Program-made: the position numbers and the translations under genes
Part shown: positions 679 through 60,200 of the stretch, piece by piece
Position numbering within the stretch: the stretch's first letter is position 1
Layout of the letters: each line of letters opens with the position of its first letter
Notes under the pieces: generated by a model
Told to the model about the DNA's origin: nothing
The model's input: only the letters and a program-made list of their open reading frames with translations
Databases searched by the model: none
Source of the DNA: a virus
Lineage: Duplodnaviria; Caudoviricetes
Length of the DNA stretch: 64,000 nucleotides
IMG/VR virus record: IMGVR_UViG_3300031555_004297
Reading direction: 5' to 3' (one strand)

Positions 679-772
679 AATAATATATTTCTCCTTTCGA
701 AATAAATATAGAGATCTGACTTGAAATCAGATCTCTATATTTTATGTGTTTCTTATGTATATAATGCTATCC

Positions 773-3700
773 TTAGATAAGACTTATATACATAAGAATC
801 TCTTCGCAAATCAATTCAGGAAGAATTGTAATTTGCTTACCATTTAGCTCATCGTCTTCATAATCGATTACTTCAAATTCAGAGCTCAAGATTACAGCAA
901 TAATACTAAGAATATGCTTTTCAATCTTCTCATTCTGATATTTTCTCTTAATCTCTTCCCATAATGGAGAAGACTCGAGCTTGGTCAACTCTTTCTTATT
1001 TACATTCTTACGACTTGCAAGACGAATAACTTTCGAGCTGACAATATATGGCAACAAGATCATTCCTGATGCTTCAAGAATTCTCTTAGCTGCAATAATA
1101 AGAACCACATAATCATCAAGATTAATGGCATTGATTGTATTTGTCATTATTTCTTCATATAAGGTCGTTACTCTTATACCGCTTATTATAAAGCTGCTGT
1201 ATATCACTATACAGATGAGACTATATCTTCACCCATTACATTTGCATTGGGGTGGATGCCATTTCCACTCACTCGAGTGTACTCCCGTTCGGGATAGTCG
1301 TTGAACGTTTAAGATGGTAGTGGGAGAGGGGCTCGAACCCCCAGTTAGGACCTGGATTAGAACCAGACCTGTAAACCAGCTCTAATATCATGAGGATCTC
1401 TCATAAAGATATAAGGCTGCTAGTTGCGTTTTCCTAATTTCGCCATCCCACTATATATCTTACTTCGCTGCTGATTGTCTCATTGAGAGTTCCCAGCAAT
1501 TAGACATCTAGTTTGCCATATATTCCTATATGGGGAAACATATACTCTATCTCCAAAATATTTAAAGAACAAATTAAACACTAAGTCACGTTGGAACGAA
1601 TTGACAGTGCATTTTCCTCCAGAGCTTAGACGGTGCTTATAAAACTGAATTTCGTCTTGATCAAACGGTCCATACATCATCTTGATTTGATTCATGGCAT
1701 CGTCTGATGCAACCTGATTTTGGATAAGAAGCGATTCATCCTGCTTTTGAAGGAATGATTCAAATTTATCAAATTCACTCGTTGTGTTCACGTAGGTCGC
1801 TAATCTACGCAGTTCTCTTATGAACTTCTTTAGGTGCTATCTAAAGACCAGACTATATCATCATCTTCAGCATTATCTGATCAGATGTTTCCCATTTCGA
1901 GCTCGCTTAAGCCCTACTCCATTTCTGGATAGTCGTTGAACCTTTATTAGAATTATTTATGACGATTATACATTCTATATCTACCGGTTTTATAATCGTT
2001 TTGTGAGAAATTGTATTTTTGCGATATATGCCGCCATGCCACTCCCTTATATATCGTAGATATTAAGGCAGAAGCATCTGGTGAATCCACCCCGCATGCT
2101 AAAGCTATTTCTGCATATGACAATTTATGTTCATCTAAATGTCTACATATCATTTCAGCTTGAGCTTCAGTAATAATAGCTTTTGGAGAATCCTCTCCTT
2201 TAACATTGAGATCATTTGCAAATGCATGTACATTATTTTCAGAATATGTAGCCCATTCTAAATTCATAAAGAAAGGATTAGATTTGTCTCCATCTAAATG
2301 ATTTATTATAAGACTCTGATCTCCTGGAACAAAATACATGCCTACAATTCGATGCAAAAGAAATGTTTTAGGTTCTCCATAAACATTTAATGATACGGCA
2401 ATATAATTATCTGGGCGTGGTGTTAACTTTAAAAACCGATTTAATTTCTTATCAAAGATTCGTCCAAAATTAGATACTTCATATCTATTTGGATAGATTC
2501 CTTCAATTTTATCTTGTTCGATAGGAACAAAGACTTCGAAGAATTCTAAAGGATAATTTAGATCATTAGGGTTATCTAACATATTTATCACTCCTTTCTT
2601 TGTTTTATTAATAATTCTAATACTTGGCTGCTGATTGCCCATTATATATCAATCCTTAGAGTTTCCTCATAGATCATCTCATAACTTGTTTCCGACTTTC
2701 GTCCCCATATAGGCTTATGAGCTTTAGGGTGTCCCAGCAATTAAGGAAATTTTATTTTTCGCAATATTTCTATTACGCTGAACTAGTAAAGTTAATTCAG
2801 ATCTTCATCTCTGCGGCTAGAGCTTAGCGATACGAAACTATATTCGTATTCAATCATTATCTTCATATAAGGTCGTTACTCTTATACCGTTCTCTTACGA
2901 ACTGCTGTATGTTTCCATACAGATGAGACTATATCATGATCCGCCTATATTGATATAATTCATTATAGGCGGACCTCTCCCATTTCGAACTCACTTGAGC
3001 CCTACTCCATAAAGGATAGTCGTTGAATATTTATCAAAAGGTATAATTGCAAGATATGTTTGTATATCTTCGTTTATGCTTAATATTTGATAAGGTTCTT
3101 TTAAATTGCGCCATATCCTTAGACATATTATCCATACCTAATGCTTTAAGTATAAGATCAAAAGATATATCTATATCTGTTTCAAACATAGAGCATATTT
3201 TATTTATTTGATCATCATTAAAAACTCGATTATGTCTGCCTTGTGGGAATTTATAGTCTTTTGAAATATGAGACCATAATTTTCCTTTCTTAATGGCAGA
3301 TATAAGAGCTATAGGATTTGATGATATGAATTCTAATCCAGTTGCATATGAAATCTCAGAAGCTGATAATCTATCTTCTTCTAACAATCTACATATTTTT
3401 CTTACCATGTTTTCATCTAGTAAACTTTTGATAAGATTATTATCATATGCATGACGAATATTCTCAGATCTGGTTATCCATTCAAGATTTCTATAATAAT
3501 TGTTTCTCGGATTTCCATCTTTGTGATTAACCTCAAGTTCTGGAGAATACCCAGGACAGAAACATTTTGCAACAATTCTAGATACAAGAGCCAGAATACC
3601 AGTTCCATCTTTAAGTGTTAGATTAACATAAGCTCTATTTTTAAATTGACCCAAATAATTAAATGAATATACCTTACCATGTTTATCATAATCTATATTA

Positions 3701-5703
3701 GATATATAGCCATAATTGCTAACTATATATCTATTCTCAACTATACCGGGAACAATATTATCCGTTATCGGAACCCAAATTTCATCTATATATTGCATTA
3801 CTTTATATAGCATAATTGTTCCTCCTTATTGATACTTTACTGCTGATTAGCATGCTACTTTTAGTAGTTTAGCCTTCCAGCAATTAGAGAGATTTGCTAT
3901 ATACATTACTGTATATAGGGACATTACTCTATCCAATATTTGAAATCCCGTGTTGCGCAAAATACTTTTATAGTTGAGATGCACGAGATTTCCATCGTAA
4001 CGATACTTCGATTATACTTTATGTCGCCATAAAGACTAGACTATATCTTGATCTTATATTCTATTACCGTTTATAAGATCCTCCCCATTTCCATTTGACT
4101 AATATCAAATGTACTCTACTCAGTTACTCACTAGAATCTTTCTTTCTAGTTACCTTTTCGATAGTCGTTGAACGTTCCTCTTGCGAGGCTTCGCTGCTGA
4201 TTGTCTCATTGAGAGTTCCCAGCAATTAAAGGAGTTTATTATTCATAGTGTCACCACTATGCTGCCCTAAGCAGTTAAGGCATAATATTAATAAGCACAT
4301 TCTGCACTGATTGCAGAGTGTGGATTGTGGTATCAATACCACGAATGTCCTGCATATTCCAAATTGTCTGATTACGTTTAGCTGTTCTCAAGACATTAGA
4401 GATTGCAGTTTCATAAAGTTTGCTATAAATGTCTACATTATATTTCTCGTTATACTTAGAGATGAGCATATCATAAACGCTTAAGATAAACTCACTCGAG
4501 TTAGTAATCTTACGAGCATACATAAAGTGACACATTAGCGGAATCATACAGTTCATAACGACAGATGCTTTCATCATGATCTGTCCATGTCTCGAAATAT
4601 TCACATGAGTCGCATACTCATGCAGTCTATAAGTTGTATGATTAGTTGGTCTTATAGACGTCTCCACGGTTTGCATGGAGTCTAGACTATATCTTCACCT
4701 TCGGCTTACTGACCCGTTAAGGTGCTCCCCATTTCGGATCGAGCATTGATCCTACTCTACTAATCAGATATATCTGAACCAGGGGCGATATATCTGCTTT
4801 CGATAGTCGTTGAACCTTCGTCCTCTGCCCTTAGCCCTTTTCTTATGTAAACTACCGTGCGGGGGTTACGAATAAAAGGGATTGTTTTTGCATGTCACTG
4901 CGAAAATAAATAAATCGTTCAAAAATAGGTTTGGTACGGATGAGAGGTATGAACTCTCTAAACTTCTATAAAGATCCGCATATGAATATTTGACATGCGT
5001 ATATTAATCGTTCATGGGCTGACAGGGGTGCTTGGCTGCTGGTTATTCATTGTTAATATTGGTTAGGATTTCTCCATACAACATCTCATCACTTCTTTCT
5101 GAATTTCTTCTCTATCGGAGCCTGACACATAGGGCCTTCTCCTGTAGCAGATGAGCTTTAGGACTTCCCAGCAATTAAAGGAGTTTATCCTGCTATATTT
5201 CTATATCAGGGTGACTGTTCTCAATCACTATATTGCAAATTAGGATTCTTAATATTCTTATAGGTTAGATTAAGGGAATAATTGTCTCTATTCATAAATC
5301 CTATTTTAAGGGCAATAGAGCCATCCATAATATAACGATACAAGTCATAGAAGAATGCCTCGCGAGTATAAGCCGGCTCGTAATCGATAAGATACTTAAG
5401 ACGGCAATACATAAATACAAGTTCATGATCTTTATCATAGAACTTTTCGAAATAGTTCAAGTACTGAACTGTATGAGTTCTCATTTCGGGATTATTGTAA
5501 GATCTCTTGGTGCTCATCATAAAGCTATCCAAGCTCGCATTTTGTTCCATACCAAAAAAAGATGACACGTCGAGCATGATCGCCCCTCGGATGGTCTTAA
5601 AGACTTCATCTTCAGGACTTGGCACCCATGTATCAATAGGTTGGAACTCCAATGGTTCAAAGAACTCCATTGGTGACAATAATTCTTGTTGTTTAGAACT
5701 CAT
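773..5703 (-). CDS. sigma-like promoter-specificity subunit of non-virion RNA polymerase (AR9 gp226/phiKZ gp68-like); spliced from 6 exons: 5224-5703, 4278-4592, 3931-4008, 2795-2854, 1549-1779, 773-1144 (511 aa)
   Basis: Removing five group I introns gives one continuous frame; all junctions are phase 0 (YSD|RHG, IMP|KYR, ILD|IEY, DLN|SEF, FGD|TNT). Motifs KRSYNN, LQYSD..KASVVM..IP.MCHF, KLYE, I.PK, DEDLNSEFDKFE, NSFQ, EEILMYISLI match gp226 as recalled. ATG at 5703 with AAGGAGG RBS and an early-type promoter upstream. Confidence 0.85.
1145..1548 (-). ncRNA. group I intron 5 of sigma-like gene (404 nt, tRNA-like element in L6)
   Basis: P1 GGAGAT|…GTTTCC with U.G; core motifs; ends …ATAATG|ACA. 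Confidence 0.9.
1315..1452 (-). tRNA. tRNA-Leu-like (class II) cloverleaf with extended, non-canonical anticodon arm, nested in intron 5
   Basis: Acceptor AGTGGGA/TCCCACT + A + CCA; D-arm GCG-AAATTAGGAAAA-CGC; T-arm GGGGG-TTCGAGC-CCCTC; long variable arm; anticodon stem ACTAG/CTGGT encloses 40 nt rather than 7. Confidence 0.75.
1780..2794 (-). ncRNA. group I intron 4 of sigma-like gene (1015 nt, HNH ORF in L6)
   Basis: P1 CTGAAT|…GTTCAG with U.G; core motifs; ends …CACAACG|AGT. Confidence 0.9.
1953..2582 (-). CDS. intron-encoded HNH homing endonuclease (NUMOD4-like + HNH_3 + C-terminal HTH)
   Basis: YEVSNFGRI, LLHRIVGMYF…INHLDGDKSNP…NLEWATYSENNVHA; ATG 2582 with AAAGGAG RBS; inside intron 4. 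Confidence 0.9.
   Translation of the reverse strand: MLDNPNDLNYPLEFFEVFVPIEQDKIEGIYPNRYEVSNFGRIFDKKLNRFLKLTPRPDNYIAVSLNVYGEPKTFLLHRIVGMYFVPGDQSLIINHLDGDKSNPFFMNLEWATYSENNVHAFANDLNVKGEDSPKAIITEAQAEMICRHLDEHKLSYAEIALACGVDSPDASALISTIYKGVAWRHISQKYNFSQNDYKTGRYRMYNRHK
2855..3930 (-). ncRNA. group I intron 3 of sigma-like gene (1076 nt, HNH ORF in L6)
   Basis: P1 GGAT|…GTCC with U.G; core motifs; ends …ATAATG|ATT. Confidence 0.9.
3034..3813 (-). CDS. intron-encoded HNH homing endonuclease
   Basis: YIVSNYG, VSRIVAKCF…VNHKDGNPRNNYYRNLEWITRSENIRHA; two C-terminal repeats; inside intron 3. Confidence 0.9.
   Translation of the reverse strand: MLYKVMQYIDEIWVPITDNIVPGIVENRYIVSNYGYISNIDYDKHGKVYSFNYLGQFKNRAYVNLTLKDGTGILALVSRIVAKCFCPGYSPELEVNHKDGNPRNNYYRNLEWITRSENIRHAYDNNLIKSLLDENMVRKICRLLEEDRLSASEISYATGLEFISSNPIALISAIKKGKLWSHISKDYKFPQGRHNRVFNDDQINKICSMFETDIDISFDLILKALGMDNMSKDMAQFKRTLSNIKHKRRYTNISCNYTF
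4009..4277 (-). ncRNA. group I intron 2 of sigma-like gene (269 nt, no cargo)
   Basis: P1 TGCCT|TAA-CTGC-TTA-GGGCA; P/Q/R/S core motifs; ends …AATCG|AAG. Confidence 0.9.
4593..5223 (-). ncRNA. group I intron 1 of sigma-like gene (631 nt; structured RNA with mini tRNA-like element in L6)
   Basis: P1 GTGAT|TG-AGAA-CA-GTCAC with U.G pair at the 5' splice site; core motifs AATTGCTGGGAA, AACCAGCAG, GTTCAACGACTA, AAGATATAGTC; ends in G (…TTTCG|AGA). Confidence 0.9.
4932..4980 (-). ncRNA. mini tRNA-like element (acceptor stem + T-arm + CCA) nested in intron 1
   Basis: (T)GCGGAT-CTTTATAGAAGTTTA-GAGAG-TTCATAC-CTCTC-ATCCGT-A-CCA. Confidence 0.6.
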
Positions 5704-5736
5704 TTTGTAAACCTCCTTGATATATTTTTCCACAAT

Positions 5737-5745
5737 TATAATATA
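5737..5745 (-). promoter_or_regulatory. early-type promoter TATATTATA upstream of sigma-like gene
   Basis: Same motif at 12194-12202, 15779-15787, 19299-19307. Confidence 0.65.
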
Positions 5746-5749
5746 CAAC

Positions 5750-6550
5750 TCATTTCTTTTTTATACTTTTTACGGTTTTAGAAATGGGTGTACGTTTTAC
5801 GCTGTTAGTAGTCTTAGTGGTTCTGACATTACTCGATGTCTGAGCCATTCTGATATTACCAGAGGGGCTTACTAAGTTCCTTTCAGCAGAGGCTGCTTTT
5901 CTAGCCTCCTTTTTCTTTTCGTTAGCTTCTTGCTTGCGCTGTTTTTCTCCGAGTTCTTGACGTAAAGCAATCTTGTCATCAGTATGCATTACAGATTGAA
6001 CCAAGCGGCTCTCGCTATAAGGCATGCCATAAGATGTGTACATCGACTTAGAAAACAAATTCTTTGTCTTCATAAAGAGATACGCAAAATACAAGATCTT
6101 GCTATATCCAGGAACTTCATATGGATTCTTTTCTTTAGGATCTTTCTTAAGAGCAAGTTTCGAAGACTTCGGCTTTAAGTCTTCAAAAAACAGGTCATTC
6201 TTCAGAAATACTCTAAGATAAGTAAAGACAAACGCTGGGTCGTTGGAGAAGAATTTGACATAGTAGTCCTGTAGGCTGGGTGATGATCTTTTAGCCGCAT
6301 CATTTGTGTAAAATAGAATAACAGCATCATAGTAGAAGTCCTTTACGGTTTCAGAAGGTACCTTAATATGTGCTACATAACGATCCTTCTTATTATCTAC
6401 ATGCAATGTGAAATCTATCTTACCAGCCTCTCTTAGAAATACTTTATCAAACTTCTCTGTGTAGAGCTGCTTAAATAGATCTCTTTGAGAAAATACAGCA
6501 TTGTGTTTACCCATTGGGTTATCTATGTACTGCTGGAATGTCATTTCCAT
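5750..6550 (-). CDS. hypothetical protein with basic C-terminal tail (late promoter upstream)
   Basis: Long ORF, RBS GAAAGGTGG, AACA-N6-TA at 6582-6593. Confidence 0.7.
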   Translation of the reverse strand: MEMTFQQYIDNPMGKHNAVFSQRDLFKQLYTEKFDKVFLREAGKIDFTLHVDNKKDRYVAHIKVPSETVKDFYYDAVILFYTNDAAKRSSPSLQDYYVKFFSNDPAFVFTYLRVFLKNDLFFEDLKPKSSKLALKKDPKEKNPYEVPGYSKILYFAYLFMKTKNLFSKSMYTSYGMPYSESRLVQSVMHTDDKIALRQELGEKQRKQEANEKKKEARKAASAERNLVSPSGNIRMAQTSSNVRTTKTTNSVKRTPISKTVKSIKKK

Positions 6551-6710
6551 TACTTCCACCACCTTTCAATTAAAGTTAACTTATTGTAGTGTTTTCGAGA
6601 ATGTAAAAAAATAAAGCTGTGGTAACTTTTTACCACAGCTTTATAGTTTAATTATATGGTACACCTATTTCATAAAATCCTATAGTATATTTCATTTAAC
6701 CTTCTTTGAA

Positions 6711-9166: not shown

Positions 9167-9524
9167 ATTCTAGAACTATTTCAAGAAATGGAACGACTCT
9201 TACAGCAACATCTCGGCCTTCATTATCAACACCATTTAAGAATAATCCATTATGGCGATCTAATGTATGCCCTTCTACTTGCTCGATGTTATTTACAGAT
9301 TTTGCATGGTTTTCAAAAGGAATTATTTGATTGACACCCTCAACCCAACGATCGAGAATGGCATCGCAACCCGCATACTTATAGATTTGAGTAAGAAGAT
9401 TATCAATTGCAATACAAGGAAATCTCAATTCCTGAGGCCAAGAATCATTATTCGTATTGAATTCAATATAATTAATATGCTCAGATTTGATAAAAAGCCT
9501 TATAAAATTCCTAAGTTTAATCAT
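9153..9524 (-). CDS. hypothetical protein, paralog of 10682-11053
   Basis: TNNDSWPQELR vs TDNETFPKELR; translationally coupled to rtcB. Confidence 0.65.
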   Translation of the reverse strand: MIKLRNFIRLFIKSEHINYIEFNTNNDSWPQELRFPCIAIDNLLTQIYKYAGCDAILDRWVEGVNQIIPFENHAKSVNNIEQVEGHTLDRHNGLFLNGVDNEGRDVAVRVVPFLEIVLEYVQE

Positions 9525-10689
9525 TATTTTCTCCTTCTGCTTTGAAATTGTAAATAGGTTTAATTATCTTCTCAATTTCTACAGTATCTTTAATACGATC
9601 GGTAATATAATCCAATGACTTATAAGCCATCGGAGATTCATCGATTGTGCTATGAGAAATAGAACTTGAGTAAATGCCTTCCATCTCTTTCTTATACCGA
9701 GTAAGAGTAAGACTATTTCTAGCTTGCTCTCTTGTAAGAAGACGTCCAGCCCCATGAGGAGCAGAATTGTTCCAGTCAGAATTTGATTTGCCCTTGCCGA
9801 TAATGCAACCTTCCTTCATATTAATTGGAATGATTACCTGGTCGTGTTCGCATGCACGAATACAACCTTTTCGTAGATGGTAGTAAACAATTGGATTACC
9901 ATCTTCGCCTACTCCATCGCTAGCAATTCGAATTGAATTATGAGTACAACCTATTTGATCATATGAGATCTTCCATTTCATTGCTTTGCAGATCTCGTTT
10001 ATAATAGCTCCACGATTCTCACTAGCAAAATTAGAGACTCTACCTACATCCTGGTAGAAGTCCATCGCCTGATTACCTGTAAGATATGCAAACTCGTAAG
10101 GAATTTCAGGATGCTGAGCTTTGGCTTCTTCTTTATAATAGTCGATAATTTCTGTACCAAGATGTCGGCTGCCACTATGAACGATAAGCCAGTATTCGGA
10201 TTTTCCATTCATATCTTCAGAAATTCCGAGCTCGATGAAATGATTTCCGCCACCAAGAGTTCCAATACTGCAAAGAGCTTTATCTATATTAAAGTTTCGA
10301 CAAGTCAAGACATCGAGAACAAATTCTCTAATCCATACTTCTCGTTCTTTGATATTTTTATCACGAATATTCATTCCATAAGGAATTTCAGATCTGATAA
10401 ATTTATCAAGCTTTTCAAGTGCAATCTTGGGTTTACCGGCAAGCTTAACAGCAGATACACCGCATCCTATATCTCCACCAAGAAGAATAGGAGAAATTTT
10501 ATTTCGACTCATCAGACTGGTGCCAATTACGCAACCAGGACCAGCATGAACGTCGGGCATAATTCTTATAATAGCATCCTTTCCAATATCGCTATCGAGA
10601 AGGGCTTTAATCATTCCGAGAGAGCTCGGATCAATTTGATCTGTAAATACTTTACAGTTTTCAGACAAGATAGTTTCATATTTAATCAT
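9517..10689 (-). CDS. rtcB: RtcB family RNA ligase (3'-phosphate/2',3'-cyclic phosphate to 5'-OH)
   Basis: MPDVHAG, GGDIGCG, GTLGGGNHFIE, HSGSR, HN, SAPHGAGR, DESPMAYK. Confidence 0.95.
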   Translation of the reverse strand: MIKYETILSENCKVFTDQIDPSSLGMIKALLDSDIGKDAIIRIMPDVHAGPGCVIGTSLMSRNKISPILLGGDIGCGVSAVKLAGKPKIALEKLDKFIRSEIPYGMNIRDKNIKEREVWIREFVLDVLTCRNFNIDKALCSIGTLGGGNHFIELGISEDMNGKSEYWLIVHSGSRHLGTEIIDYYKEEAKAQHPEIPYEFAYLTGNQAMDFYQDVGRVSNFASENRGAIINEICKAMKWKISYDQIGCTHNSIRIASDGVGEDGNPIVYYHLRKGCIRACEHDQVIIPINMKEGCIIGKGKSNSDWNNSAPHGAGRLLTREQARNSLTLTRYKKEMEGIYSSSISHSTIDESPMAYKSLDYITDRIKDTVEIEKIIKPIYNFKAEGENND

Positions 10690-19361: not shown

Positions 19362-22184
19362 TTAGAATACAGGAGCTGTAATTTTGTCTTTATCTGCATC
19401 GAGACACATAGTAAGACTATACAAACTCTGCATTGCTTCTTTATCAGAAGTTCTGACGCCTTTTCCTCCGAGGTTAAAGTAATGAGCTTTAGCACTAAGC
19501 TGTTCATCAAGCTCAGCATTAGCCTCTTCAGAGAAAACTCCACGTACTGTAACTTGGTCACCGTCGTAATCCAAATAAACTACATTATCTTTCAATAATG
19601 ATTAGACTATATCTTATACTAGTAAAACTAGTATTCTCCCGTTTCGGGTTCATAGGAAATTTACAAACCCTACGTCTTTCGACTAGTCGTTGAACATCTG
19701 TATTTATCATCTTCTTTTCTTATTACGCATTGTATCATATTCATCCTTCTTTTCAGGGCGAATAGGAATAGCACGTTTAATATTAGAACGCTTATTTCCT
19801 GGTTTTATACCATATTGAGAAGATATATGTGTCCATGAATGCCCTCCAATAATAGATCTTATAATTAGAAGATCTTTTGGATTAGCCTCCATCCATGCAT
19901 ATATTGCACACTCCTCAATAGAGTATCCTAATTCAGTATATGCTTGGCATATTAAATGAACCTGAAATTCTGATATTCTAGATTTAGGATTCAATTCACC
20001 ATTTTGGTTATAGTTTATTAAATCACGCCTAGATAATATCAATTGTTGATCAAATAATGATTCATCATATTCTTCATTGAAATAAATTCCATGTAACGCA
20101 TTTTCAGAATCATTAACCCACTCGAGATTCCAAGCATAATTGCAACGACCATCTGTATTAAATTTATGATTAACTAAATTTCTGTTCATTGCAATATCAT
20201 CTACTGTTTTAGGTATAAATGCATTTGCTACAAGTCTATGAATAAAGAATTTTCGTCTTTTAATATAACTTGAGCATGAAAGTTCTATGCGTAAATAAGT
20301 TTTATTTTGTTTAGGAGGTATATATTCTTCTGGAAATAATTCTCTTCCATAAGATGTAAATATCCTTCCATAAGATGTAATAAAATATTTTAATTCTATG
20401 ATATCCTCGAAATAGATGTATTTAAATTCTTCTACAGGATATCCTGGGATTTGTAAAGATAGTTTGGCTGCCGCCTCGGCTTCTGTTAAAAATGGCGGTT
20501 GAAATAAACAAACTCCAGCTTTTTCTACCATATAAAATCACCACCTTTCATTAAAATAATATATAATGATAAATACATTTTGCTGCTGATTGTCCAATCT
20601 TCATAATTTTTAAACATTCACGCTTGACATTGCTATCTACGTTGTAGTTTATGAAGCTCTTAGGAGTTTCCAGCAATTAGAGAGATTTTTATTTAAATCG
20701 GAGGCAATTGTTGACGGTTGTTTACCACCGATTCCTTCAAGATACAAATTACTAATATTTAAGGTATCAATAAATCTATTAGATGTATTAGCTCCGATAT
20801 CAGATTGTCTGATCTTCGGATAATTCTTATAGAACTTAGAACCCATTACCATAGGCTCAGTTTCAGTCGTAGAAGAAATTCTAATCTTTGTAGGATATTC
20901 GTTGAAGTAGCTGTCAATTGGGTACCTGGTAATCAAGACATGCTTATCTTTAGTACTTTCAACAGCAGCCTGATATAGAATATCACACCAAGTTAAATCT
21001 CTTTCCATTATAGGAAGTTTTCCTATATCAGATTTAGCGAATTCTTCTTCGCTCATGTTATAGCCTTTGAAACGCAATCTTACAGTAATACCTTCTATTG
21101 TCGGAACTTCAATAGGAATAAATCTATTAGAGAATCCAGTACAGAATCTTTCGATTTCTTTCTTAATTCTTTCATCAGAGAATTCCATCTGATAATCCTT
21201 CGGGTGAAGATAAGTTACTTGTCCATTCTTAATATAAGGAAGGACTGCATCTCCAGCAAATTCATTCTCAAAGAATCTTCTTACATTATGAATCATAAAA
21301 GGTAAGAAGTTTACACATGCAGATGCAAGAGGAAGAACAGAATAATCCAAGTCTGCTTCGATATCATCGAGTCTTTCAACCTTCAATTCGGGAGCAGAAA
21401 GGACTAGACGAGATCCATAGTCGGTAGTCTTACTCATAACAGCTCTACGAAGAATACCAGTCTTACCGGGAATAACATTCGTAGTCTTATCGCCATTAAT
21501 TGTAGTACCAGAACCAAACCAATCATAGATCTGTACAAGCGTCTCTTGCACACGTCCTCTAGTAGCATCATTAAGATTCAATCCATAGTCTGCGGATTCT
21601 TTAAGGGCTTTAACAAAGACAAGAAGATTTCTATAGAGTTCATTAATCTCTCCAACGGCCACACGGCCTTTCTCGGTATTAACGTCTCTATAGTATGCGG
21701 GGCACACAATATATTTCTTAATAAACATTTCAGGTGTTCCCATATACTTCTCGATAAATTTTACTCTCATGTCTCTCTGACGAGAGTCTGTACGTTTTAG
21801 TTTAATTTTATCAATATTCTTTTGTAAGAACTTGACTCCACATTCACCATTTTCATCATCGATAACAAGTTCTCCTTTATCATTAATGATGAATCTATTA
21901 ATGCCATGAACGCACAACTTAATATTAGAATCGATCTTAGTCCACATCTTATAAATAAGAGGGTTAATAAAAGTATCTCCAAGATCTATATAGGCGAATG
22001 TATTAGCTCTATCATATTTAGTGATTCCGAAAATTTCATTAGATAATAATCCATCAGGAGTAGGAACCGAATTTCTAATAAAGAAAACAGGATTCGTGAC
22101 TTCTTTAAGATCATTGACTTTTACAAGTTTCTCAGGGTCGATTAGATTAACTCTGAGGTGCTCGCCTTTAAGCAAATCAGCCAT
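19362..22184 (-). CDS. phage multisubunit RNA polymerase beta-prime (N-terminal/catalytic) subunit, probably virion RNAP; exons 20724-22184 and 19362-19571 (about 556 aa)
   Basis: DGLLSNEIFG, GKTGILRRAVMSKTTDYGSRLVL, TRYP; splicing restores LEGIGG|DYDGDQ catalytic motif; late-type promoter variant upstream. Confidence 0.9.
19572..20723 (-). ncRNA. group I intron 6 in RNAP beta-prime gene (1152 nt, HNH ORF in L6)
   Basis: P1 AATCGGTGGT|…GCCTCCGATT with U.G; AATTGCTGGAAA, AATCAGCAG, GTTCAACGACTA, AAGATATAGTC; ends …TTTG|GAT. Confidence 0.9.
19707..20531 (-). CDS. intron-encoded HNH homing endonuclease
   Basis: YFITSYGRI, FIHRLVANAFIP…VNHK…NYAWNLEWVNDSENALH. Confidence 0.9.
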   Translation of the reverse strand: MVEKAGVCLFQPPFLTEAEAAAKLSLQIPGYPVEEFKYIYFEDIIELKYFITSYGRIFTSYGRELFPEEYIPPKQNKTYLRIELSCSSYIKRRKFFIHRLVANAFIPKTVDDIAMNRNLVNHKFNTDGRCNYAWNLEWVNDSENALHGIYFNEEYDESLFDQQLILSRRDLINYNQNGELNPKSRISEFQVHLICQAYTELGYSIEECAIYAWMEANPKDLLIIRSIIGGHSWTHISSQYGIKPGNKRSNIKRAIPIRPEKKDEYDTMRNKKRR

Positions 22185-29301: not shown

Positions 29302-29856
29302 ATGATTATTACAAGTCCTTGTTATAAGCTAGCTGAAGAAATTCAAAAGCTTATAAGAAAGAAATTCGAATTTAAAGTAGAAAAACTGATAATCAGCGAG
29401 TGTGAAATTGAATCTAGAAAAAATGATATTAGATTCGTATTTAGCGGCGAACCAAACTTAGCTACTCTACATAATCCGTCCTATAGAACTTTCGGATACT
29501 TTTCTGACTCATTTTTAAGACGCAAATTCTGGACTCTTGATTCCAAAGTTATGGGGTCTGTGCTTATAAATAAGTCTGAATGCAATTTTATATTTGACGA
29601 TAAATCTGGTTTATGGATTTATCGTGTTCCGATTGAGCCTTTCGCAAGAGAGTCTCACACCCCGATAGCAAGAAATTGCTTAGTCTTCCCAACTTTGAGA
29701 AGGCCTCAAGGATGTAAATATTTCAAGTCAGCTCAAAGTGTTATTTTAAATGGAAATTATATTGAGATAGGATATAAAGATCTTGATCAAATGACAGAAA
29801 CCTATCTTGATATTAATGTCATATATTCTAAAAAGATTGAGGAGGAGAATGAATAA
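29302..29856 (+). CDS. hypothetical protein
   Basis: ORF with AAGGAG RBS, early promoter variant upstream. Confidence 0.7.
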   Translation: MIITSPCYKLAEEIQKLIRKKFEFKVEKLIISECEIESRKNDIRFVFSGEPNLATLHNPSYRTFGYFSDSFLRRKFWTLDSKVMGSVLINKSECNFIFDDKSGLWIYRVPIEPFARESHTPIARNCLVFPTLRRPQGCKYFKSAQSVILNGNYIEIGYKDLDQMTETYLDINVIYSKKIEEENE

Positions 29857-30890
29857 TGTTCGGAGGCGGAATGTTGACAGGAGAGAAGATACGTAAGGAG
29901 GTAAAGAAAGGAAATATCAAGATTTCTGATTACGATCCTGAATGTATTAATCCTAATAGCTATAATCTTAAATTGCATCCGCAGCTTTTAATTTATAAGC
30001 GCGATGCTGTAAGAGCAAATATTGTTGAAGGTACAATGCCAAAGCCCATTCAGGCCGGTATTGATCGTCCTAGTGAACTCGAGAGAGTTGAAAGCAAGGT
30101 AGTTAATAGACTTACTAAGCAAGGCGAGCCTGGAAGTTCTAAAAAACATAAAAAGAAAAAGAAGAAGGTAGAAGTTCTTCACGAAAATGCAAATACGGAG
30201 AATGCTACATCATCGGGTACTGTATCATTTGGTTCTGGATGCATTATCGAAAAGTTTGGTTATGCAAGCAGAGTTGATAATTTGACTGAGACAGTCCTGT
30301 CATCTAAAGCAACAGTAGATGCTATCGAAAAGTCTACAACAGATTTAAGAACAATGAGTAAGCGCTCTATGATAGATATCGTAGATGCGGCTAGCAATGA
30401 TACGGAAGTTTTATATAATAATGAACTTCAACTTGAAAAGAATATCAATAAACTCGGTCTTTATCCTAATATCGAGAGTGCTGTATTACCCCCTCTGGAT
30501 ATGCATAAAGAGAATGAGACTATTGAATTTGAGATCCCTGAGGAAGGGTTTGTACTTCAGCCTGGAGTACTTTACATAGGCAGAACTGTAGAAAGAACCT
30601 GGACGGATAAGTATATTCCGATGATCAATGGCAGATCTTCTGGAGGTCGTCTTGGTATTTCTATCCATATTTGTGCAGGATTTGGTGATATTGGATTTGA
30701 TGGAACTTGGACGCTTGAAATTACTTGTGTCGAGCCTGTCCGTATTTATCCTAACTCTGAAATTGCACAAGTATGTTTCTTTAAACCATATGGTAAAGTA
30801 AAAGATCTGTATAGAGGTAGATATTATCAGCAAGAAGATGCTACAGCTAGCAGATTCAGTAGAGAGAAAGGAGATAACCACAATGAGTGA
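29856..30890 (+). CDS. dcd: dCTP deaminase with about 160-aa insertion
   Basis: INPNSYNLKL…GRSSGGRLG…AGFGDIGFDGTWTLEI…RIYP…IAQV.F…Y.GRY..Q…ASR. Confidence 0.9.
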   Translation: MFGGGMLTGEKIRKEVKKGNIKISDYDPECINPNSYNLKLHPQLLIYKRDAVRANIVEGTMPKPIQAGIDRPSELERVESKVVNRLTKQGEPGSSKKHKKKKKKVEVLHENANTENATSSGTVSFGSGCIIEKFGYASRVDNLTETVLSSKATVDAIEKSTTDLRTMSKRSMIDIVDAASNDTEVLYNNELQLEKNINKLGLYPNIESAVLPPLDMHKENETIEFEIPEEGFVLQPGVLYIGRTVERTWTDKYIPMINGRSSGGRLGISIHICAGFGDIGFDGTWTLEITCVEPVRIYPNSEIAQVCFFKPYGKVKDLYRGRYYQQEDATASRFSREKGDNHNE

Positions 30891-51288: not shown

Positions 51289-54200
51289 TTATTCAGATGC
51301 CAAACCAGACATTACTTTCAGAAGATAATCGGTGTCTTTGTCGCCAATAAGTTTGGCAGCATTGGCATCACCACTTCTTTGAATAATTCTAGCTAAAGCA
51401 GCCTTAGTGCCAGCAGTATTCTGTTCTACTACCTTTTGAACCTCTTCCTTATTAAGGTTAATATCGAGTTTCTCAGACAGGAGTTCAAGAATCTTTGCAA
51501 GCAATCCTGTATTAGCCGCAATCTGCATCAGGACATTAACGATGGTCTCGAGGAATACTTCATAGCTTACGCCACCAGCTCCTCCAGATTTATCATCCTT
51601 AGCATGTACAACAACAGGAGTCTCGGCAGGTTCATAAGAATCAAGAGCTCTAGCAGATCCATAGTGCGCAGCAGCTGCTCTTCTGCTTTCAGTAAGAGCA
51701 TTAGCACCACGTCCAGATCCAACTTGACCATCAATCTTCTCACTAGTTACCATAGCACTCAGCGTAGTACCCAATACCCTTCTAGGATCATAAGATACAC
51801 GAGACTGAGGCATATCAGGATCTTCAACAACAATATTATTCTTATTATCTAAGCCAACTCCAGTAATGAAGTGAGGTCTAGAACCATAAGGAGAATTGCT
51901 ATTGCCTTGAGGATCCATTCCAAGCATTACTACCTGATGACCATGTTTGAGAGCTTCCATAATAAGGTTACTATCATTCGTAGCCTGGGTCTTAATGCCA
52001 TATTTATTAAAGATGGACTCGAAATACTTCATGTCTGTCATGCCTTCTTTATTCAAGAAACCATTATTTTCAGCATGTCTTGCAGCTTCATTAAGAGTTA
52101 TAGTCTTTCCACGTACATTGTTGATAGCATTAGTTGCTGCTACAGGAGCACAACCATTTTCACCAATTGTCGTAGGACCATACGTTCTATTTGCTACAGT
52201 AGGATCAGATTGATAGATATGTTTTCCAGCACCACCAAACCAACCCTTTACGGTACTCCAAGCATTGGAGATTCCTTCTCCAATACTACTAGCAACATTC
52301 TTGATACCATCTACGACAGCACCAAATTTATCGCTAATCCATCCACCGACATCTGGGAATCCCCAGTTACCTCCTCCGAAGAAGCTCTTGATTTTACCAA
52401 AAGTATTTTCAAAGAAGCCAGTGATACCATCCCAAATGCCCATAATCTTTTCTTTGATCCAGTCAAATGCATCTGTTACAGGTTTCAATCTCTGTTTTAA
52501 TCCATCGATACCACCAGTAATAAAGCTTACAACTGTACCAATTGCACCGACAATAATACGAAGAGGAGTACTCAATACTTTGACCACTTGGAAGATCACG
52601 TTATTGATAATATCCATTACGTTATTGCCAGTAGATTCAGGAGACTTAGGCGATTCCTCACCCTTCCATGCAGCTGTAAATAATGCTCCAACTGCAGTTC
52701 CGAGCTTAGGAAGCATCTGTTTGCCAGCATTAATAACTACCTTAACAGTATCTACAACACGGCCAACTACCCAAGTTAATGCTCTAGGAACGAATGTAAC
52801 AACTTTGACAACAAAGAAGATAGCCTTGTTGATAATATCCATTACATTATTTCCAGTGCTTTCAGGTGCATCGGGTCCATCCTCACCCTTCCATGCAGCG
52901 ACAAAGAGTCCGCCAACAGCAGTAGCAAGTTTAGGAATCATTTGCTTGCCGGCATCAATGACGATCTTGACAGTATCGACAATTCTACCAACAGCCCAAG
53001 TGATTGCACGAGGAACAAAGGTTACTACCTTAACAATTCCAAATACACCCTTCATTACGTTATCAATCATATCATTACCAGTGGTAGAAATGTTGATCTC
53101 GTAATCTTCTCCCTCCCAGGATTTCTTGAACAACTGTCCAACCATTGTTCCTAGGATAGGAATGATAACCTTACCACATTCAATAGCATCCATGACAAAG
53201 TTCTTGACCTTACCAACCATCGAAGTGATATAGATAATCGGAGAGATTGCAATTTTCATTACAGAGAATACGACATTTGCAAGGTTACCTACAAGACCGC
53301 GTTCATTTTCCTGGTTGGCCTTCACGGAGAATGCTCCAAGCATATTACCATCCCAAGCTTTGATAAATACGTTCTTAACACCTTGCCAGATGAAGCTACC
53401 GAATTTCTTCAAGCTATCCCACATCTTAGCCATATTTTCTTTGAAATGTGCGAAGAATTTTACAATACTTGTAATCGGACAGGTTATAACTTTCATCACT
53501 CCATGGATTACGTTCTTGATACCCTTCAGAGGATCATCGTCAGCAATCTGGGACTCCTCGGAATCTTCTCCAGTTACGGCAGAAGTCCAAAGATTCTTAA
53601 ATGCTGCAATTATCCATTTAGGAAGTCCCTTAAAGGACTCTATAAGCGGAGCCATAGTCTCATCGAGGTTACCATTCTTGATACCACTAAAGATATTCTT
53701 AATGGTAGAACCAGCATCCTTAAACATTTGGATAGCGCCACCGCCTACTTGTTTGACGTTTTCGACTTGCTCTCCAATCTGAGTATTCTTGAGAGCTTTT
53801 CCAATCTGAACATGCAGTTTGTCCTTATTGTTAAAGTCTTCAAGGTTATCATACTGCTCTTCAGGATGTGCTTCGTTCCACTCATCCATGATGTCTTGAG
53901 CTCTAGCTCTAGCTTCCTTAAGACCCTTAGGATCAAGTCCAAGAAGCGGGAATAAGAACTCAACGCAGACATCTACGATAATTTCAGAAGGAAGCAATCC
54001 AAAAGTAAATTGATTTGTAATAAGTTCCAACAAACCGCAGACGATTTTATGTCCGAAGTTAACTTCGAACTCAGTATCGCCTTTAGCAACGCCAAGTATA
54101 GTATCGGCATTATCAAAACCATGCAAGAAATCTTTTACCCAAATAGCAATAGCAACAAAAGGAATCTTACCGGCAATACCGCTAGCAATCTTTCCTAAAG

Positions 54201-57200
54201 CTTTGCCAGCAACTTTACCAACAATATTCTTACTAAGCTTCTGAGCAATCTTTTCGAGAGCCTCTTTAAGCATAGTTGTAGAAACGCCCTTACCGCAGAA
54301 TGACAAAATCTTAGCACCGATCTTGGAGTCTCCGATCTTTGCAAACGCCTTGCTAAGCCCAGCAGCTATCTTACTACCAACATTGTCAGCACTATTCTTA
54401 GCTACATTCTTAGCAGCTTTACCAAGGCCTTTAAGTCCTCCCTCAGCGATATCATCTGCCGCGTTGCCCATAATATTCTTAGTAGCACCAGCAGCTGTCT
54501 TCTGCATAGATTTAAATGCTGCAGAATTAGCAAGATTATCACTATTCTTGATACCAATTTCAAGGATATCATCAGTAAGGTTTCCACCAGACTTTTCTGC
54601 GATCTCGATAGCGACATCTTCGATAGCCTTAGCATCTCCACCCTTCTTCATGATAGCCTTATAAATATCATCAGCATTTCCTCCAGAAGCTTTTGCAAGC
54701 TCCTTAGCAGCATCTTGACGAATTGCTGTACTTTCAATAACATCATGAACGATATCTCCAGCCTTTTGACCGAGATTAATAGAAGCACCAGCTCCTTTTA
54801 CTGTATAGCCAACGCCCTTAGTTGCTGCTTTAACAACACCTTTACCAACGCCCTTAGTAGATACTTTAGACATTACTTTACCAACGCCAGACTTACCAAT
54901 TCCAACAGCAGATCTTACAAATGCTTTACCACCTGCAGATACCATTTTAGAGCCGATAGAATCATTGGTATTCATAACAGTATAACCGCTAACAACTTCC
55001 ATTACAGGATAATCTGTAGGATCGGTAGTTGTTTCGGTTTGGGTTTCGTCAGTATAATAAAGAGGATTGCCCTTCTCATCAGTAGCCTGAGCCATTTCAA
55101 CAGTATTGGTTCTCTGTTTTCTACCAAGAGCACCAACAATACCAGCTGCAGCTTCATCATATTCGTTCGTAGCGGTTCTATCACCAACGCTCTTCTGACC
55201 CCATTTGATGTTCTTTATAGCACTTACAAGTGCCTTAACAAGACCTGCAATAAATACGGGAGCATTATTAAGAAGAACTTCAATAATAGGCTGAATAACG
55301 TTGTCACAGACTTTCTGGAAGTTATCTGCAATATACTGAACTCCATCGCGAACAATACCGCCAAAGCCATCGGGGAATTTTTCTTTGAACCAGCCAGAAG
55401 CTTTAGTCCAGATCTTTCCTACAAGGCCATCAGTAGAATCTCCCTCGTTACCAAAGAGAAGTTTCTTGATAGGATTAATAACCTTATCAGTCAGAACGTC
55501 GCCAAACATTCCAAAGAGGGTAATACCTCCGAGAATACCAGCTCCAATTCCGATAGCTTTTCCAACTTTAGTGCCGCCAATGAACGAGAACAATCCGCCC
55601 ATAGCATCACCAATCTTGCCAAGAATGCCGCCCTTCTTCTTTCCCTTATCCTTAGGATTTCCAAAGAGCTTATCCTTAATACTGATAAGTGCATTTTTGG
55701 TCTCTTCGTGATTTGCAGAATCTCTATCATCTTGAGCATCTTCTTCCTCCGCCTTCTGTTTAGCTTCAACTGCTTCTACCGAGTCTTCTCCATGCACTGT
55801 TTCTACAGCATTAACTGCAGGATCTACAGGTACAGGAAGATTAGAACCAGGAGCAGGAAGTAATCCAGCAGGACTTTCAGAAGATCCGCCCTTTTTCTTC
55901 CGACTAGGAAGTTTAATTTTAGATAATACACCAGCAACTGCAGTCTTTGCACCAGTAAGGATTGAAGTCTTTTCAGATTTCTTGCCATCTTCAGCTTCTT
56001 CTGCAATAAGTTTAGCATATTCTTTGACCTTCTTATGAGGAACATCTTCGAGAGTATATCCGTCCTTCTTTGCAAGAGCTTCAACTCTCTTTATAAATTC
56101 CTCTTCAGTCATTGATTCAGGACGGTTCTTAAGAATCTTTTCGCTGAATGCATCTTCTCTGCTTTCTTTAATAGAGTCAATCATAGATGCAATCGAGCTC
56201 TTAGCAGCAGTCTTGAAGGACATCTTAGAGACTTCCTCATTCTTGTGCTCCTCTTGAATTTGCATCATATACTCAAATCTCTTATCAGCAGGAAGATCTT
56301 CGAGAGTATATCCATCCTTCTTTGCAAGGACTTCAAGTCTCTTATTAACCTCTTCTTCCGTAAGTCCAGGAATATCTTTTGCAAGAATTCCTTTGACCTT
56401 ATTAGAAGCGGACGAAACAGCTCCAGATACAGCTTGACCAAGTTTTGATCCAGCAATACCAGCAGTTGCTTTCGACATAGCATCCTTAACAGAGGTAGTT
56501 ATATTAGAAGTGCGGTCTGCAAGAGTGGTCTTGAAGAAGATAGCTTTACCCTTCTTAAATCTCTTCTTTTCATCCTTACTGAGATTTTTCAGGATTTCTT
56601 GTTCGATTTTCAGATAACGTTTCTCTTTAGGCCCTCTCTTTTGGAACCAGTTCATGCTCTTGATCTTTGGTTTCTTGCTCATCCATCCAAAGGATCTGAC
56701 ACAGGTCATGACCTTGTCTTTGAAGAATTCTTCAGCAGACATGCCATCCTCTTCTGCACCATCATCCTTGAATTTTGCAGCAAATGCTACCATTCCGGTC
56801 TTGGCTTTCTCAAGACTTGCGGATGCTTTCTTCTTAGCATCTCCAAGCATATTAGATACCTTTTCTCTTACAGTATCAAGAGGATTAGGTTTCTTTAGAT
56901 AGATAGCTCTACCCTTCTTGAATACAGACTTTTCGGTCATATTCATATAATTAAGGCAGAATGCTTCAATCTGTTCACGCTTTTCTTCGGAGAGATCAGA
57001 GACTTGCTCAGCTTTCCATCCAAAAGCTCTAGCTTTATCCATTACAGCCTCTGTATAGAACTGTTCAGGATCAGCATTTTTAGCAGCATCAGACTTAGCC
57101 TTTCCAGCTGCGAATTCAGATTTAAGGAAAGCTATATCATCTTTAACGCCAGATGTGACTCCGGCTAGTTTCTGGCCTATCTTGGATTCGGCAAATTTGG

Positions 57201-60200
57201 AAGATGCCTGATTCATCAAAGCCTTAATATCAATCTGAGGAGCATCAGGTCCAGTTGCAAGTGCAGGAATCATCTCCTTATTTGTAGTTTCTACAATTTC
57301 AGGAGATCCAGCACCGAGAAGCCCAGCAATCTTAGATTTTGCAGGTCCAATAGCAGATCTTGCCTTGTTAACAGCAGTCAGAGCTTTCTGCTTAAGTTTG
57401 TCCTTAATGGACATCTTAGCATATTTCTCAGGATCTACATTATCAACTCCAGCCTCTTCTGCTTTTTCCTCATCTTCTTGCTTTTTCTTATCCTCTGCAG
57501 CATCAGCAGTCTTCTTCTTAACTTCTGTAGGAACAATGTCTGTTGACGGCTTCTTGCCCTCTTCAGCACTATTTCCGCCAGGAGTAGTTTTGGCCTCTTC
57601 AGCAGCAGCCTTAGGATTAAGAATAGCTTTCAGAAGTTCATTGGATTCTGCAATTTTTTCAATAATAGTCTTCGTTCTTTCTTCGTAGATATTCTTGAAA
57701 AGATTTGTAGCTTCGGCAGGATCTGTAGGAGGTTCAGGTTCATGACCCGATTCACCATCCTTCTTAGCTCTCTTAAGACGAGCTTTTTGCTCATCTGCCA
57801 TTGCCCTTTGAATCTGACGAAGATCGCTATTGCCTTTAATGCGACGGCCGAGTTTCTTCTCAAGCTCCGCATCTCCAGCAGCAAGTTCATCTTTAGCTTT
57901 TCTAAAGTCAGCATTCTCTTTATAAGTCTTCTCGAGCAATCCCTTAATTTGATTCTTAAGTCTAGACTTCTCTTCAGGAGTAAGATTTTTAAGATCATCA
58001 ATTGCTTCAAAAGCTCCCTCTTCATCGCCTTCAGCGGCAATTTGAGCGATCTTCTTGACCTTATTGTAGCCAACTCTATCATAGAGCTGATGTCCACCTT
58101 CATCATATTCGTTAAAGAAAGAGGAAATCTCTTGACCCATCTGCTGTCTTACACCACCAAGGTTCTTACCAGCAGCTTCACGAGCCTTAAGACGTCCCTT
58201 GACAAGTTCTTCGATACCCTTAAGCTGGGATTCATCCATTTGGCTAATGGCTTCATCCTGCTCAGTAAACTTGTCCTTGCCCATCTTCTTGTCTTTTCTA
58301 AACTGAAGTCTCTCTGCAGCTGTCATTTCTCCAGCTCTACCAGTTCTTACACGCTTCTTTTGCATATGGTCAGCAGCCGCTCCCATAGCTTTAAAAGGCG
58401 CTCCGATAATAGCCTTACCAATGGCAAGAGGAGCTTTCAGAATGTTAAAGAATGTTTTAGTAATGGGCTTGAAGATCTTCTCTTGCAAGAAGTCATGAAT
58501 CGGAATACCAATAGTCTTCTCAAACATGTTGTTTAAGAAGTCCTTAACTTTATCAAAGGTATTAGTTACGGCATTCTTAATAGCGATACCTAATTCCTTA
58601 CCGAAGTTCTTAAGGGGATCGAGGATCTTCTTTTTACCCCATTCGGTGAGGTCATCAAAGATCTTCTTAATTCTCTCTTTAGCAGGATTGAGGATACCAT
58701 TCTTGATAGCACCAACAAGGCTGCCCTTCTTAGGATTATCAGGATCACCAAATACGAATTTATGGAATGCGGAAGTAGAAGTAAGTAATCCAGCACCAGC
58801 ACCAAGAACAGCATTTCCAAGTAAACCGAATGGACCCATAAGCATTCCAGCAACAGCACCGATTCCCATAGCAGGAACAGACTTCTTGAAGAATTTCTTA
58901 GCCTTCTCAGCAGTTTCCTTAGAAATAAGACCATCTTTACCGGTTTCAGCATCACCAAATACGAACTTCTTGAAGTTATCATTATTCTTCAGGTATCCAA
59001 TACCAGCGCCAATCGCAGCACCACCAAGAACACCAAAAGGAGTAAGCAATCCAAGAAGACCGCCTGCGATACCAAAGTCGCCCATGTCTTTACCATGCTT
59101 CTTGAAGATATCGACAACAGACTTGGGAATGACACCGCCCTTACGATTTCCTTCATCATCCTTCTCACCGAATAGCATGGTCTTAAGAGTTTCGCTATTC
59201 TGAAGAACAGATATACCAGCACCTGCAAGAGCACCAAGCAGCGGATTACCCATAAGCAGACCTGCACCTGCACCAAGGATACCACCAGCTCCAACTCTAG
59301 ATGCCTTAGAAGGATCTTTATTCTCTTCCCAGATCTTATAAAGGTTACTCTTCATTTCTTCAGTATTGAAGGTTCCCTTTGCATTAAGACCTATATAATT
59401 CATGATTTTTGCTCTATCAGCTCTTTCAAGGCTCTCCATTCTGGAGAGTTCTTTAGGATCTGTAGAGGCAGGGATAATAATCTCTCCAGGAGAGATCATA
59501 GTAAGACCGCGTTTGGTAACGATTCTACCACGTGCGCTAGTTGCAGGCTGCTCACCAGCAGGAGTACCTTCTGTTTCATTCTTGATTTCTTCGGCAGACT
59601 TTACTCCACCTTTTTCAAGTTCAGAAATGATCTGATCACGTCTAGCTTTTCTAGCCTTGATCTTAGTATTTACTCTACTGATATCTGTGCGATATTGCTT
59701 TCCAAGAGCAACGATAGCTTTTCTAGCCTCAGGGCTTCCTTCAGCTTGCTGATATAAGAATTTGGTGGTAGCAGTAATGCCCTGCTCCTTTGCCATTTCG
59801 TATACCTGTGCTTCATCGAAACCAATTTCTGCAGCTTTCTTAGCAAATTCATGTTCTTTAACGCTTATAGTACGTTCATTAAAAGCAGTACCAACAGCAT
59901 CCATTCCGCGTCCAATAGTTCTATTGAAGCCAAGTTTAACTCTGTTCTTACCAGATCTAAACATGTCTCCCATAGCATTCTTGACAGGAGCGCCATACTT
60001 ATCCCATAAAGGTTTTAATTTTTCTTTGACTTTATCTTTGAATGGATCAAATTTATCTTTAAACCACTTAGACAGACCTTCGAAAGCATCTTTAACTCTA
60101 GAAATCATATAATTAAATATGCTATCGATTTCATTACCATCCTTATCGACCATCTTCTCATTTCCAAAGAAGACTTTGAAAAGATTTTGGTCTGCCTTGT

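Follow-up and report, generated by a model that had tools for sequence, protein, structure and literature searches.

A gp226-type transcription subunit gene split by five predicted group I introns in a phage genome, with tRNA-derived cargo in its introns and those of its relatives

In the group I introns of the T4 td/nrdB type, an endonuclease ORF is looped out of the P6 element, and the cyanobacterial tRNA-Leu(UAA) gene is interrupted by a group I intron. Multi-intron phage genes and intron-split RNA polymerase (RNAP) genes are already known. The orf142 gene of phage Twort carries three group I introns and a 23-nt exon, and undergoes exon skipping (PMC10136302). The Jug phages carry about 18 group I introns per genome, whose splicing is confirmed by metatranscriptomes (PMC12880540), and these phages and the crAss-like phages likewise have genes fragmented by many group I introns; neither tRNA cargo nor introns in a sigma-type subunit are known to have been reported for them. 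Lak phages also have tRNA introns, one of which is predicted to contain a tRNA (bioRxiv 10.1101/356790). In the cyanobacterial and Lak cases, tRNA and intron are thus nested as well, whereas the arrangement described here is the reverse, a tRNA being lodged inside the group I intron of a protein gene.

The gene concerned lies in the first 64 kb (hereafter the window, i.e. the whole stretch of DNA analysed) of a 185-kb virus record that CheckV rates as 75% complete, which corresponds to about 250 kb in full. Its product is supported, by profile comparison, Foldseek, synteny and an early promoter, as an orthologue of AR9 gp226, a phiKZ gp68-type promoter-specificity subunit of the non-virion RNAP. 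It resembles gp226 (PDB 7S01, 7UM0, 7UM1) and gp68 (8QUE, 7OGP) in full-length sequence and fold. The features of the locus are as follows, in the direction of transcription.

5750..6562, minus strand: upstream neighbour, orthologue of AR9 g227 (31% identity, E 1e-33)
5731..5745, minus strand: putative AR9-type early promoter, TATATTAT-N6-G, motif at 5745, with a Shine-Dalgarno site and ATG downstream
5703-5224, minus strand: exon 1, 480 nt, aa 1-160
4593..5223, minus strand: group I intron 1, 631 nt, after aa 160, with an enlarged P5 and a tRNA-derived P6 insert, without ORF
4592-4278, minus strand: exon 2, 315 nt, aa 161-265
4009..4277, minus strand: group I intron 2, 269 nt, after aa 265, without cargo
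4008-3931, minus strand: exon 3, 78 nt, aa 266-291, equivalent to gp226 236-260, end of the sigma2-like domain
2855..3930, minus strand: group I intron 3, 1076 nt, after aa 291, with an HNH ORF in P6
2854-2795, minus strand: exon 4, 60 nt, aa 292-311, equivalent to gp226 261-280, F261/Y263 region and half of the sigma finger
1780..2794, minus strand: group I intron 4, 1015 nt, after aa 311, with an HNH ORF in P6
1779-1549, minus strand: exon 5, 231 nt, aa 312-388
1145..1548, minus strand: group I intron 5, 404 nt, after aa 388, with a tRNA-like P6 insert
1144-773, minus strand: exon 6, 372 nt including the stop codon, aa 389-511
704..742, strand not given: perfect 16-bp hairpin 3' of the stop codon, probable terminator

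An earlier note on this DNA had proposed six exons of 480, 315, 78, 60, 231 and 372 nt, all joined in phase 0 into a 511-aa protein, with about 69% of the locus being intron and with exons 3 and 4 missing from the ORF list. This layout is confirmed. Indeed, the predicted spliced product aligns with the protein of an intronless relative (P0002) over 391/509 identities (77%) with zero gaps, so that every junction is fixed to the codon, and all five junctions are recovered exactly by a spliced-alignment DP scored on intronless homologs only, in which the exon had to end in U and the intron in G while the phase was left free. Furthermore, about 50 intronless proteins of 496-546 aa, which surfaced among the longer homologues matched by an exon 1 query, align full length with the 511-aa product. 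The introns make up 68.9% of the 4931-nt locus, the primary transcript being 3.2 times as long as the CDS, and the ORF list does lack exons 3 and 4. What the earlier description of the locus omitted are the two HNH ORFs and the two tRNA-derived intron inserts. Standard gene calling does not see genes split in this way; the databases contain about 70 clusters, each of about 160 aa, that terminate at or near the intron-1 site.

The product is identified only by profile and fold searches: exon 1 alone has no match among annotated phages, and the protein goes undetected when PDB, PHROGs and Pfam are searched with a single sequence. A profile built from 50 orthologues has a sole match in PDB, the gp226 chain 7S01_A (E 4.9e-26, positions 32-499; hhalign probability 98.8), and tblastn with the intronless P0002 retrieves AR9_g226. 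The fold was compared through the AlphaFold model of P0002 (pLDDT 84, the finger region being low, as expected), which stands in for the spliced protein to which it is 77% identical without gaps. Foldseek ranks 7s01_A first (E 2e-13), followed by 8que_B, i.e. phiKZ gp68 (E 2e-5), and the model displays the parts of a gp226-type fold, an NTD with a sigma2-like part, a finger and a CTD. The suggestion that the spliced protein is a gp226/gp68-type subunit, for which profile and Foldseek comparisons had been proposed, is therefore borne out, by both methods for gp226 and by Foldseek for gp68. The gene order g227-g226 is the same as in AR9, and the early promoter has a consensus identical to that of AR9, which is present before g226 too (PMC5312081); a sigma-70 promoter scan did no better than chance. 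A beta-prime ORF with the terminal ADFD motif, at 87350-88681 of the record, indicates that a split multisubunit RNAP is encoded. However, the protein is only about 22% identical to gp226 and has 511 aa instead of 464, and AR9 g226 is uninterrupted. The reading of template-strand deoxyuridine is an AR9-specific trait; in the sequences compared, V206 aligns with a Thr, a dCTP deaminase is present in the genome, and a search for ThyA in the 75%-complete record found none. When the domain limits of gp226 (PMC9209446) are used for mapping, introns 2, 3 and 4 fall at about residues 235, 260 and 280, and exons 3 and 4 together correspond to residues 236-280, i.e. to the promoter-contacting end of sigma2 and finger. 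No paper reporting introns in a gp226-type promoter-specificity subunit was found, most subscription journals being outside the search.

All five introns contain a group I core detected by RF00028, with the conserved P3-P8 region, the P7 G-binding site and identified P3 and P7 strands. Four of them score above the gathering cut-off (97, 80, 57 and 51 bits; unrounded, 97.3 for intron 2, 79.6 for intron 5, 56.5 for the 3' part of intron 3, whose 5' core is detected separately, and 50.5 for intron 1), and intron 4 is matched as two halves flanking its ORF (E 0.0015 and 0.41). The five introns all have an insert after the 5' strand of P7, where IA2 introns have their P7.1/P7.2 extension, and may belong to that subgroup. 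As the earlier note had observed, the last exon U faces a G at each 5' splice site and every intron ends in G (5/5), which the folded P1 elements and the sequence confirm; furthermore, the best P1 partner of each exon end is its own intron. The 185-kb contig contains nine group I cores, five of which lie inside this 1.5-kb CDS (binomial P ~6e-9). We infer, under the strong constraint of the gap-free match, that the five introns self-splice in vivo to restore the 511-aa protein. A phage transcription-initiation factor can depend on five predicted self-splicing events, the shortest exon measuring 60 nt (in two relatives, 21 nt). One animal-gut metatranscriptome, which shares 5% of words, yields contigs that are introns of related phages with no exon-exon joint, and it informs on neither splicing nor habitat.

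The likeness to Twort orf142 lies in related introns and very short exons; here, in contrast, five introns interrupt a transcription-initiation factor, two of them with HNH genes and two with tRNA-derived cargo. Core motifs, P6 cargo and the HNH family are held in common with the T4 td/nrdB-type introns, the I-HmuI-like NUMOD4-HNH endonucleases and the phiPA3 RNAP intron, but in this clade, unlike in T4-type introns, P6 is often filled by a tRNA gene or a tRNA-like RNA instead of an ORF.

Among 80 related viral loci surveyed, about 53 are intronless. In 31 intron-bearing loci, 47 introns were mapped; these loci were partly chosen for truncated ORFs, so that the counts are not population frequencies, and the junctions of L068 (aa 289) and L070 are less certain. 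Orthologues carry from zero to five introns and, together with the window, the 31 loci define 17 sites, of which 15 lie within aa 254-332. Five introns are not unique to the phage of the window: L087 also has five (160, 265, 272, 291 and 318.33, one being phase-1), as does L145 (160, 265, 272, 291 and 311), and both have a 21-nt exon. The closest relatives (L010 and L142, 85-86% identical) carry intron 160 only, near-identical genes differ in their introns (L030 vs P0012, L079 vs L083), and on a quick tree the presence of introns is patchy, including differing pairs with branch lengths of at most 0.01. Introns 1-4 are closest to introns found at the same site in other phages: the best relatives of intron 1 are introns at the identical site, and those of intron 4 at its site are in L030, L145 and L148. 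Several introns also accumulate in other genes of the clade, such as the probable DNA polymerase gene of G002, with four cores in 2.1 kb.

We favour, with a probability of about 0.78, the view that this early-expressed gp226-type gene of an AR9-like jumbo phage is a hot-spot for mobile group I introns that are gained and lost singly through homing. The earlier note had proposed instead that five serial splicing steps act as a timer, delaying the sigma-like subunit and setting the onset of late transcription. The early promoter on the gene, the need for the AR9 product at late promoters, a transcript 3.2-fold longer than the CDS and the retention of intron 160 over much of the subclade are all in keeping with such a device. 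However, the number of introns varies from zero to five, with one in the closest relatives and polymorphism between near-identical genes, g226 of AR9 lacks introns, introns abound equally in other genes of the clade, and any delay could be an unselected side effect. Because introns are patchy, track their sites and differ between near-identical genes, homing-type gain and loss rather than a conserved timing device is indicated; the timer is poorly supported and very unlikely.

Insertion sites are only modestly more conserved than the gene average (0.66 vs 0.60, P 0.03), and therefore conservation alone does not explain the hot-spot. By analogy with known homing biology, introns would come and go one by one: the HNH enzymes of introns 3 and 4 would cut intronless alleles near their own sites, repair would co-convert the adjoining ORF-less introns, and introns would pile up in the essential stretch coding for sigma2 and finger, where imprecise loss would be lethal. 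The natural series of zero to five introns in a single gene provides material for the study of intron cost, exon skipping and co-conversion.

The earlier note had also pointed out that, all junctions being in phase, exon skipping would give in-frame isoforms. Phase 0 at all junctions of the gene stands; in a reading built on it, phase-0 junctions would be selected so that the skipping of exon 2, 3 or 4 yields functional isoforms of altered promoter specificity. Tandem IA2 introns of Twort orf142 are documented to cause exon skipping (PMC10136302), and in the window P3 strands are interchangeable between introns 1 and 2, and nearly so between introns 2 and 3. The functional part of the proposal fares far less well. 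Of the 17 sites, 12 lie in phase 0, four in phase 1 and one in phase 2, and given 12/17, five of five in phase 0 arise by chance with P ~0.18. Phase 0 also prevails in single-intron genes (7/9 sites), where skipping is impossible, and in relatives the internal exons may be 82, 100, 34, 28 or 65 nt long (L087, L064, L066, L079, L083), i.e. not multiples of three, besides the phase-1 intron of L087. Moreover, skipping would remove the end of sigma2 and the finger, which promoter binding requires, cognate partners are preferred in P1 and P6 pairing, and the 50 aligned intronless orthologues all keep to the range of 496-546 aa. Functional isoforms are thus most improbable; skipping may be a side reaction, a cost rather than a function, whose products would probably be dead protein. 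As base composition predicts a phase-0 fraction of 0.42, the excess in 12/17 sites needs a further cause, such as an in-frame stop at the start of many introns, which is found in introns 1, 2 and 4 of the window.

Two of the five introns carry endonuclease genes:

3034..3813, minus strand: HNH homing endonuclease ORF, 259 aa, in P6 of intron 3 (Pfam HNH_3 E 2e-8; phrog_59 E 4e-36)
1953..2642, minus strand: NUMOD4-HNH homing endonuclease ORF, 229 aa (209 aa from a start inside P6), in intron 4 (phrog_59 E 2e-34)

In the latter, Pfam HNH_3 and NUMOD4 fall just under their cut-offs (0.2 bit short). The intron 3 protein is 60% identical to the HNH protein at the same site in L145, and the intron 4 protein 53% identical to that at the same site in L030; both genes evidently track their insertion sites, like homing elements. 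The two ORFs look intact, their nuclease activity and targets being putative. An HNH gene could also be kept for damaging the intronless sigma gene of co-infecting relatives, as has been demonstrated for the endonuclease of the phiPA3 RNAP intron (review, PMC12908238), and here two intact-looking ORFs would be aimed at an essential transcription gene. Three of the five introns, however, have no nuclease; such weaponised introns are rather unlikely, and this reading is compatible with homing and not an alternative to it.

The P6 loops of all related introns were extracted, and 12 of the 47 introns hold tRNAs callable by ARAGORN, 11 being tRNA-Leu (UAG or UAA) and one having a CUA anticodon. They occur at sites 160, 254, 272, 311 and 388 and are called by Rfam as well as ARAGORN. 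The tRNA-Leu cargoes have a cloverleaf, a 7-nt anticodon loop, a Leu anticodon, a long variable arm, A73 and CCA. Two-sided changes occur in 20 of 24 pairs when the 12 intronic and two free tRNAs are compared, and the cargo tRNAs of the relatives, with this strong covariation, are under structural selection. Cargo varies by phage at a single site, site 311 holding an HNH gene, a tRNA-Leu or nothing, and of the introns in the beta-prime catalytic loop, that of the phage of the window contains an HNH gene and that of L090 a tRNA-like RNA. Globally, these comparisons show P6 to be an exchangeable cargo slot for an HNH gene, nothing, or a tRNA gene. A tRNA in that slot appears special to this clade: outside it, pattern scans returned just known contigs, ordinary free tRNAs and chance matches, which, the patterns being narrow, is weak evidence of restriction to the clade. 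A literature search found no tRNA genes inside group I introns, most subscription papers being outside its reach. The tRNA cargo in group I introns of a phage protein gene is therefore an apparently undescribed intron passenger, in a locus that is otherwise less exotic than a timer.

No canonical tRNA gene was found in the 64-kb window, in which two introns carry tRNA-derived inserts:

4932..4979, minus strand: tRNA minihelix remnant in P6 of intron 1, with a 6-bp acceptor stem, a 5-bp T arm and ACCA
1315..1452, minus strand: tRNA-Leu-like cloverleaf, 138 nt, in P6 of intron 5 (minimum-energy fold cloverleaf, z = -2.9)

The minihelix aligns with both ends of the tRNA-Leu genes found at the same place in relatives and folds as acceptor plus T arm; the D, anticodon and variable arms are lost, so that it lacks the four arms of a cloverleaf, and the conserved A58 is absent. 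The cargo of intron 309 in L138 is similarly reduced. The intron 5 element has a 7-bp acceptor stem, an A discriminator, CCA, a D arm, a long variable arm and a T arm, with an anticodon arm enlarged by about 33 nt and a loop of about 40 nt instead of 7; it is tRNA-like rather than a canonical tRNA, and default ARAGORN and Rfam RF00005 miss it. Relaxed ARAGORN made 140 mostly spurious calls on the genome, which were disregarded except for this element. Its homologue in L090 lies in P6 of a different intron, that of the beta-prime catalytic loop, and the acceptor and anticodon stems of the two differ by six two-sided compensatory changes. If the insert could be removed, the anticodon would read UAG in the window and AAG in L090, each of the leucine CUN type, but the insert of about 33 nt pairs with those very bases. 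An archaeal bulge-helix-bulge reading of this insert was dismissed on visual inspection, as it has a single 3-nt bulge. Both cargoes of the window are derived: one is a minihelix, the other a cloverleaf whose anticodon is masked, and neither can decode as it stands.

It is fairly probable that the intron-borne tRNAs of the clade are expressed and mature, the tRNA probably being matured from the intron RNA by host tRNA-processing enzymes. If so, a 'selfish' intron would pay its rent with RNA instead of a nuclease. Such introns might even be domesticated, selection keeping intron 160 because its cargo benefits the phage, through an early supply of tRNA-Leu or as a decoy or replacement against host tRNA-cleaving defences. 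Indeed, the site-160 introns of relatives hold a tRNA or a tRNA-like RNA in 10 of 10 cases, and G001 (90% complete) and G002 (84%) yielded no more than two tRNA genes each, the intronic tRNA-Leu among them. The reduced forms (intron 1 of the window and intron 309 of L138) keep the acceptor stem, T arm and CCA, which are the parts read by tRNA-processing enzymes. Domestication is nevertheless somewhat unlikely, since this genome uses UUA (12.5%) and CUA (6.6%) only as minor Leu codons, the window cargoes do not decode, and many orthologues have neither the intron nor a nearby tRNA; this reading is compatible with the mobile-intron hot-spot and may add to it. In a stronger form, the introns of the clade would be domesticated tRNA cassettes, from which the tRNA is matured, and RNase P-type cutting at the reduced acceptor/T-arm/CCA tag in P6 would gate the splicing or turnover of the sigma-like pre-mRNA and control intron turnover or the yield of spliced sigma mRNA, tying the late-transcription switch to the state of host tRNA processing. 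The phage encodes RtcB, and split group I introns are still able to splice (PIE; P6b-swapped halves, PMC10136302); we regard this form as unlikely. Among the relatives, nesting reaches three levels in L143, in which a cargo tRNA-Leu(UAA), additional to the 12 ARAGORN-callable ones, is itself split in its anticodon by a 238-nt group I-type intron.

Besides the five introns of the sigma-like RNAP subunit gene (sigma gene), the genome carries four other group I introns, all of which include an ORF in their P6 loop, with an HNH motif in two of the four:

window 19583-20678, minus strand, group I intron with P6 ORF
genome (185-kb record) 86.5-87.3 kb, group I intron with P6 ORF
genome 138.7-139.7 kb, group I intron with P6 ORF
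genome 162.4-163.4 kb, group I intron with P6 ORF

These four introns come after ORFs resembling parts of RNAP beta-prime, a helicase-type gene and a DNA polymerase. Within the sigma gene, introns 2 and 5 have 40 identical nt in common and introns 3 and 5 share an 84-nt block (86% identity), while a 168-nt block (87.5%) is common to intron 4 and the 138-kb intron. Because the introns share sequence blocks as mosaics, gene conversion among introns within one genome is suggested.

Multi-intron genes are also found elsewhere in related phages. Four group I cores lie within one gene, probably encoding a DNA polymerase, in L177 (164.6-166.7 kb of the related genome G002), and another gene, located 4-8 kb upstream of the sigma gene, carries two to three tightly spaced cores:

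L089:1900-2650, closely spaced cores
L146:690-950, closely spaced cores
L149:2380-2630, closely spaced cores
L138:4400-4650, closely spaced cores

In the related locus L143 (10986-11620), nesting reaches three levels, the sigma gene harbouring a group I intron whose cargo, a tRNA-Leu(UAA), has its anticodon split by a second, 238-nt group I-type intron; after in silico excision of the latter, the cargo is called as tRNA-Leu(UAA). Other relatives display further unusual tRNA-like elements:

L148:9733-9808, cargo of intron 160 (inserted after aa 160), CUA anticodon, ARAGORN 'Pyl'
L146:9719-9826, cargo, one arm expanded
L149:9719-9789, cargo, non-canonical yet Rfam-positive
L138:9165-9220 (approximately), cargo reduced to acceptor, T arm and ACCA
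L121:9832-9854, minus strand, free-standing tRNA-Leu-like element, same D arm, CCA end, odd middle part, no ARAGORN call

The CUA-anticodon cargo is possibly an amber suppressor or else a decayed tRNA.

Three other genes of the window deserve mention:

9517-10689, minus strand, RtcB RNA ligase (Pfam E 3e-48)
29856-30890, plus strand, dCTP deaminase
51289-62367, minus strand, very long ORF (3692 aa)

RtcB, encoded 4 kb from the sigma locus, could act in tRNA repair or in joining intron/tRNA fragments. Uracil in the phage DNA is possible: besides the deaminase gene, no ThyA was found across the whole, 75%-complete record, and Thr occupies the position of V206 in AR9 gp226. The 3692-aa product is probably a virion protein, such as a tape-measure protein.
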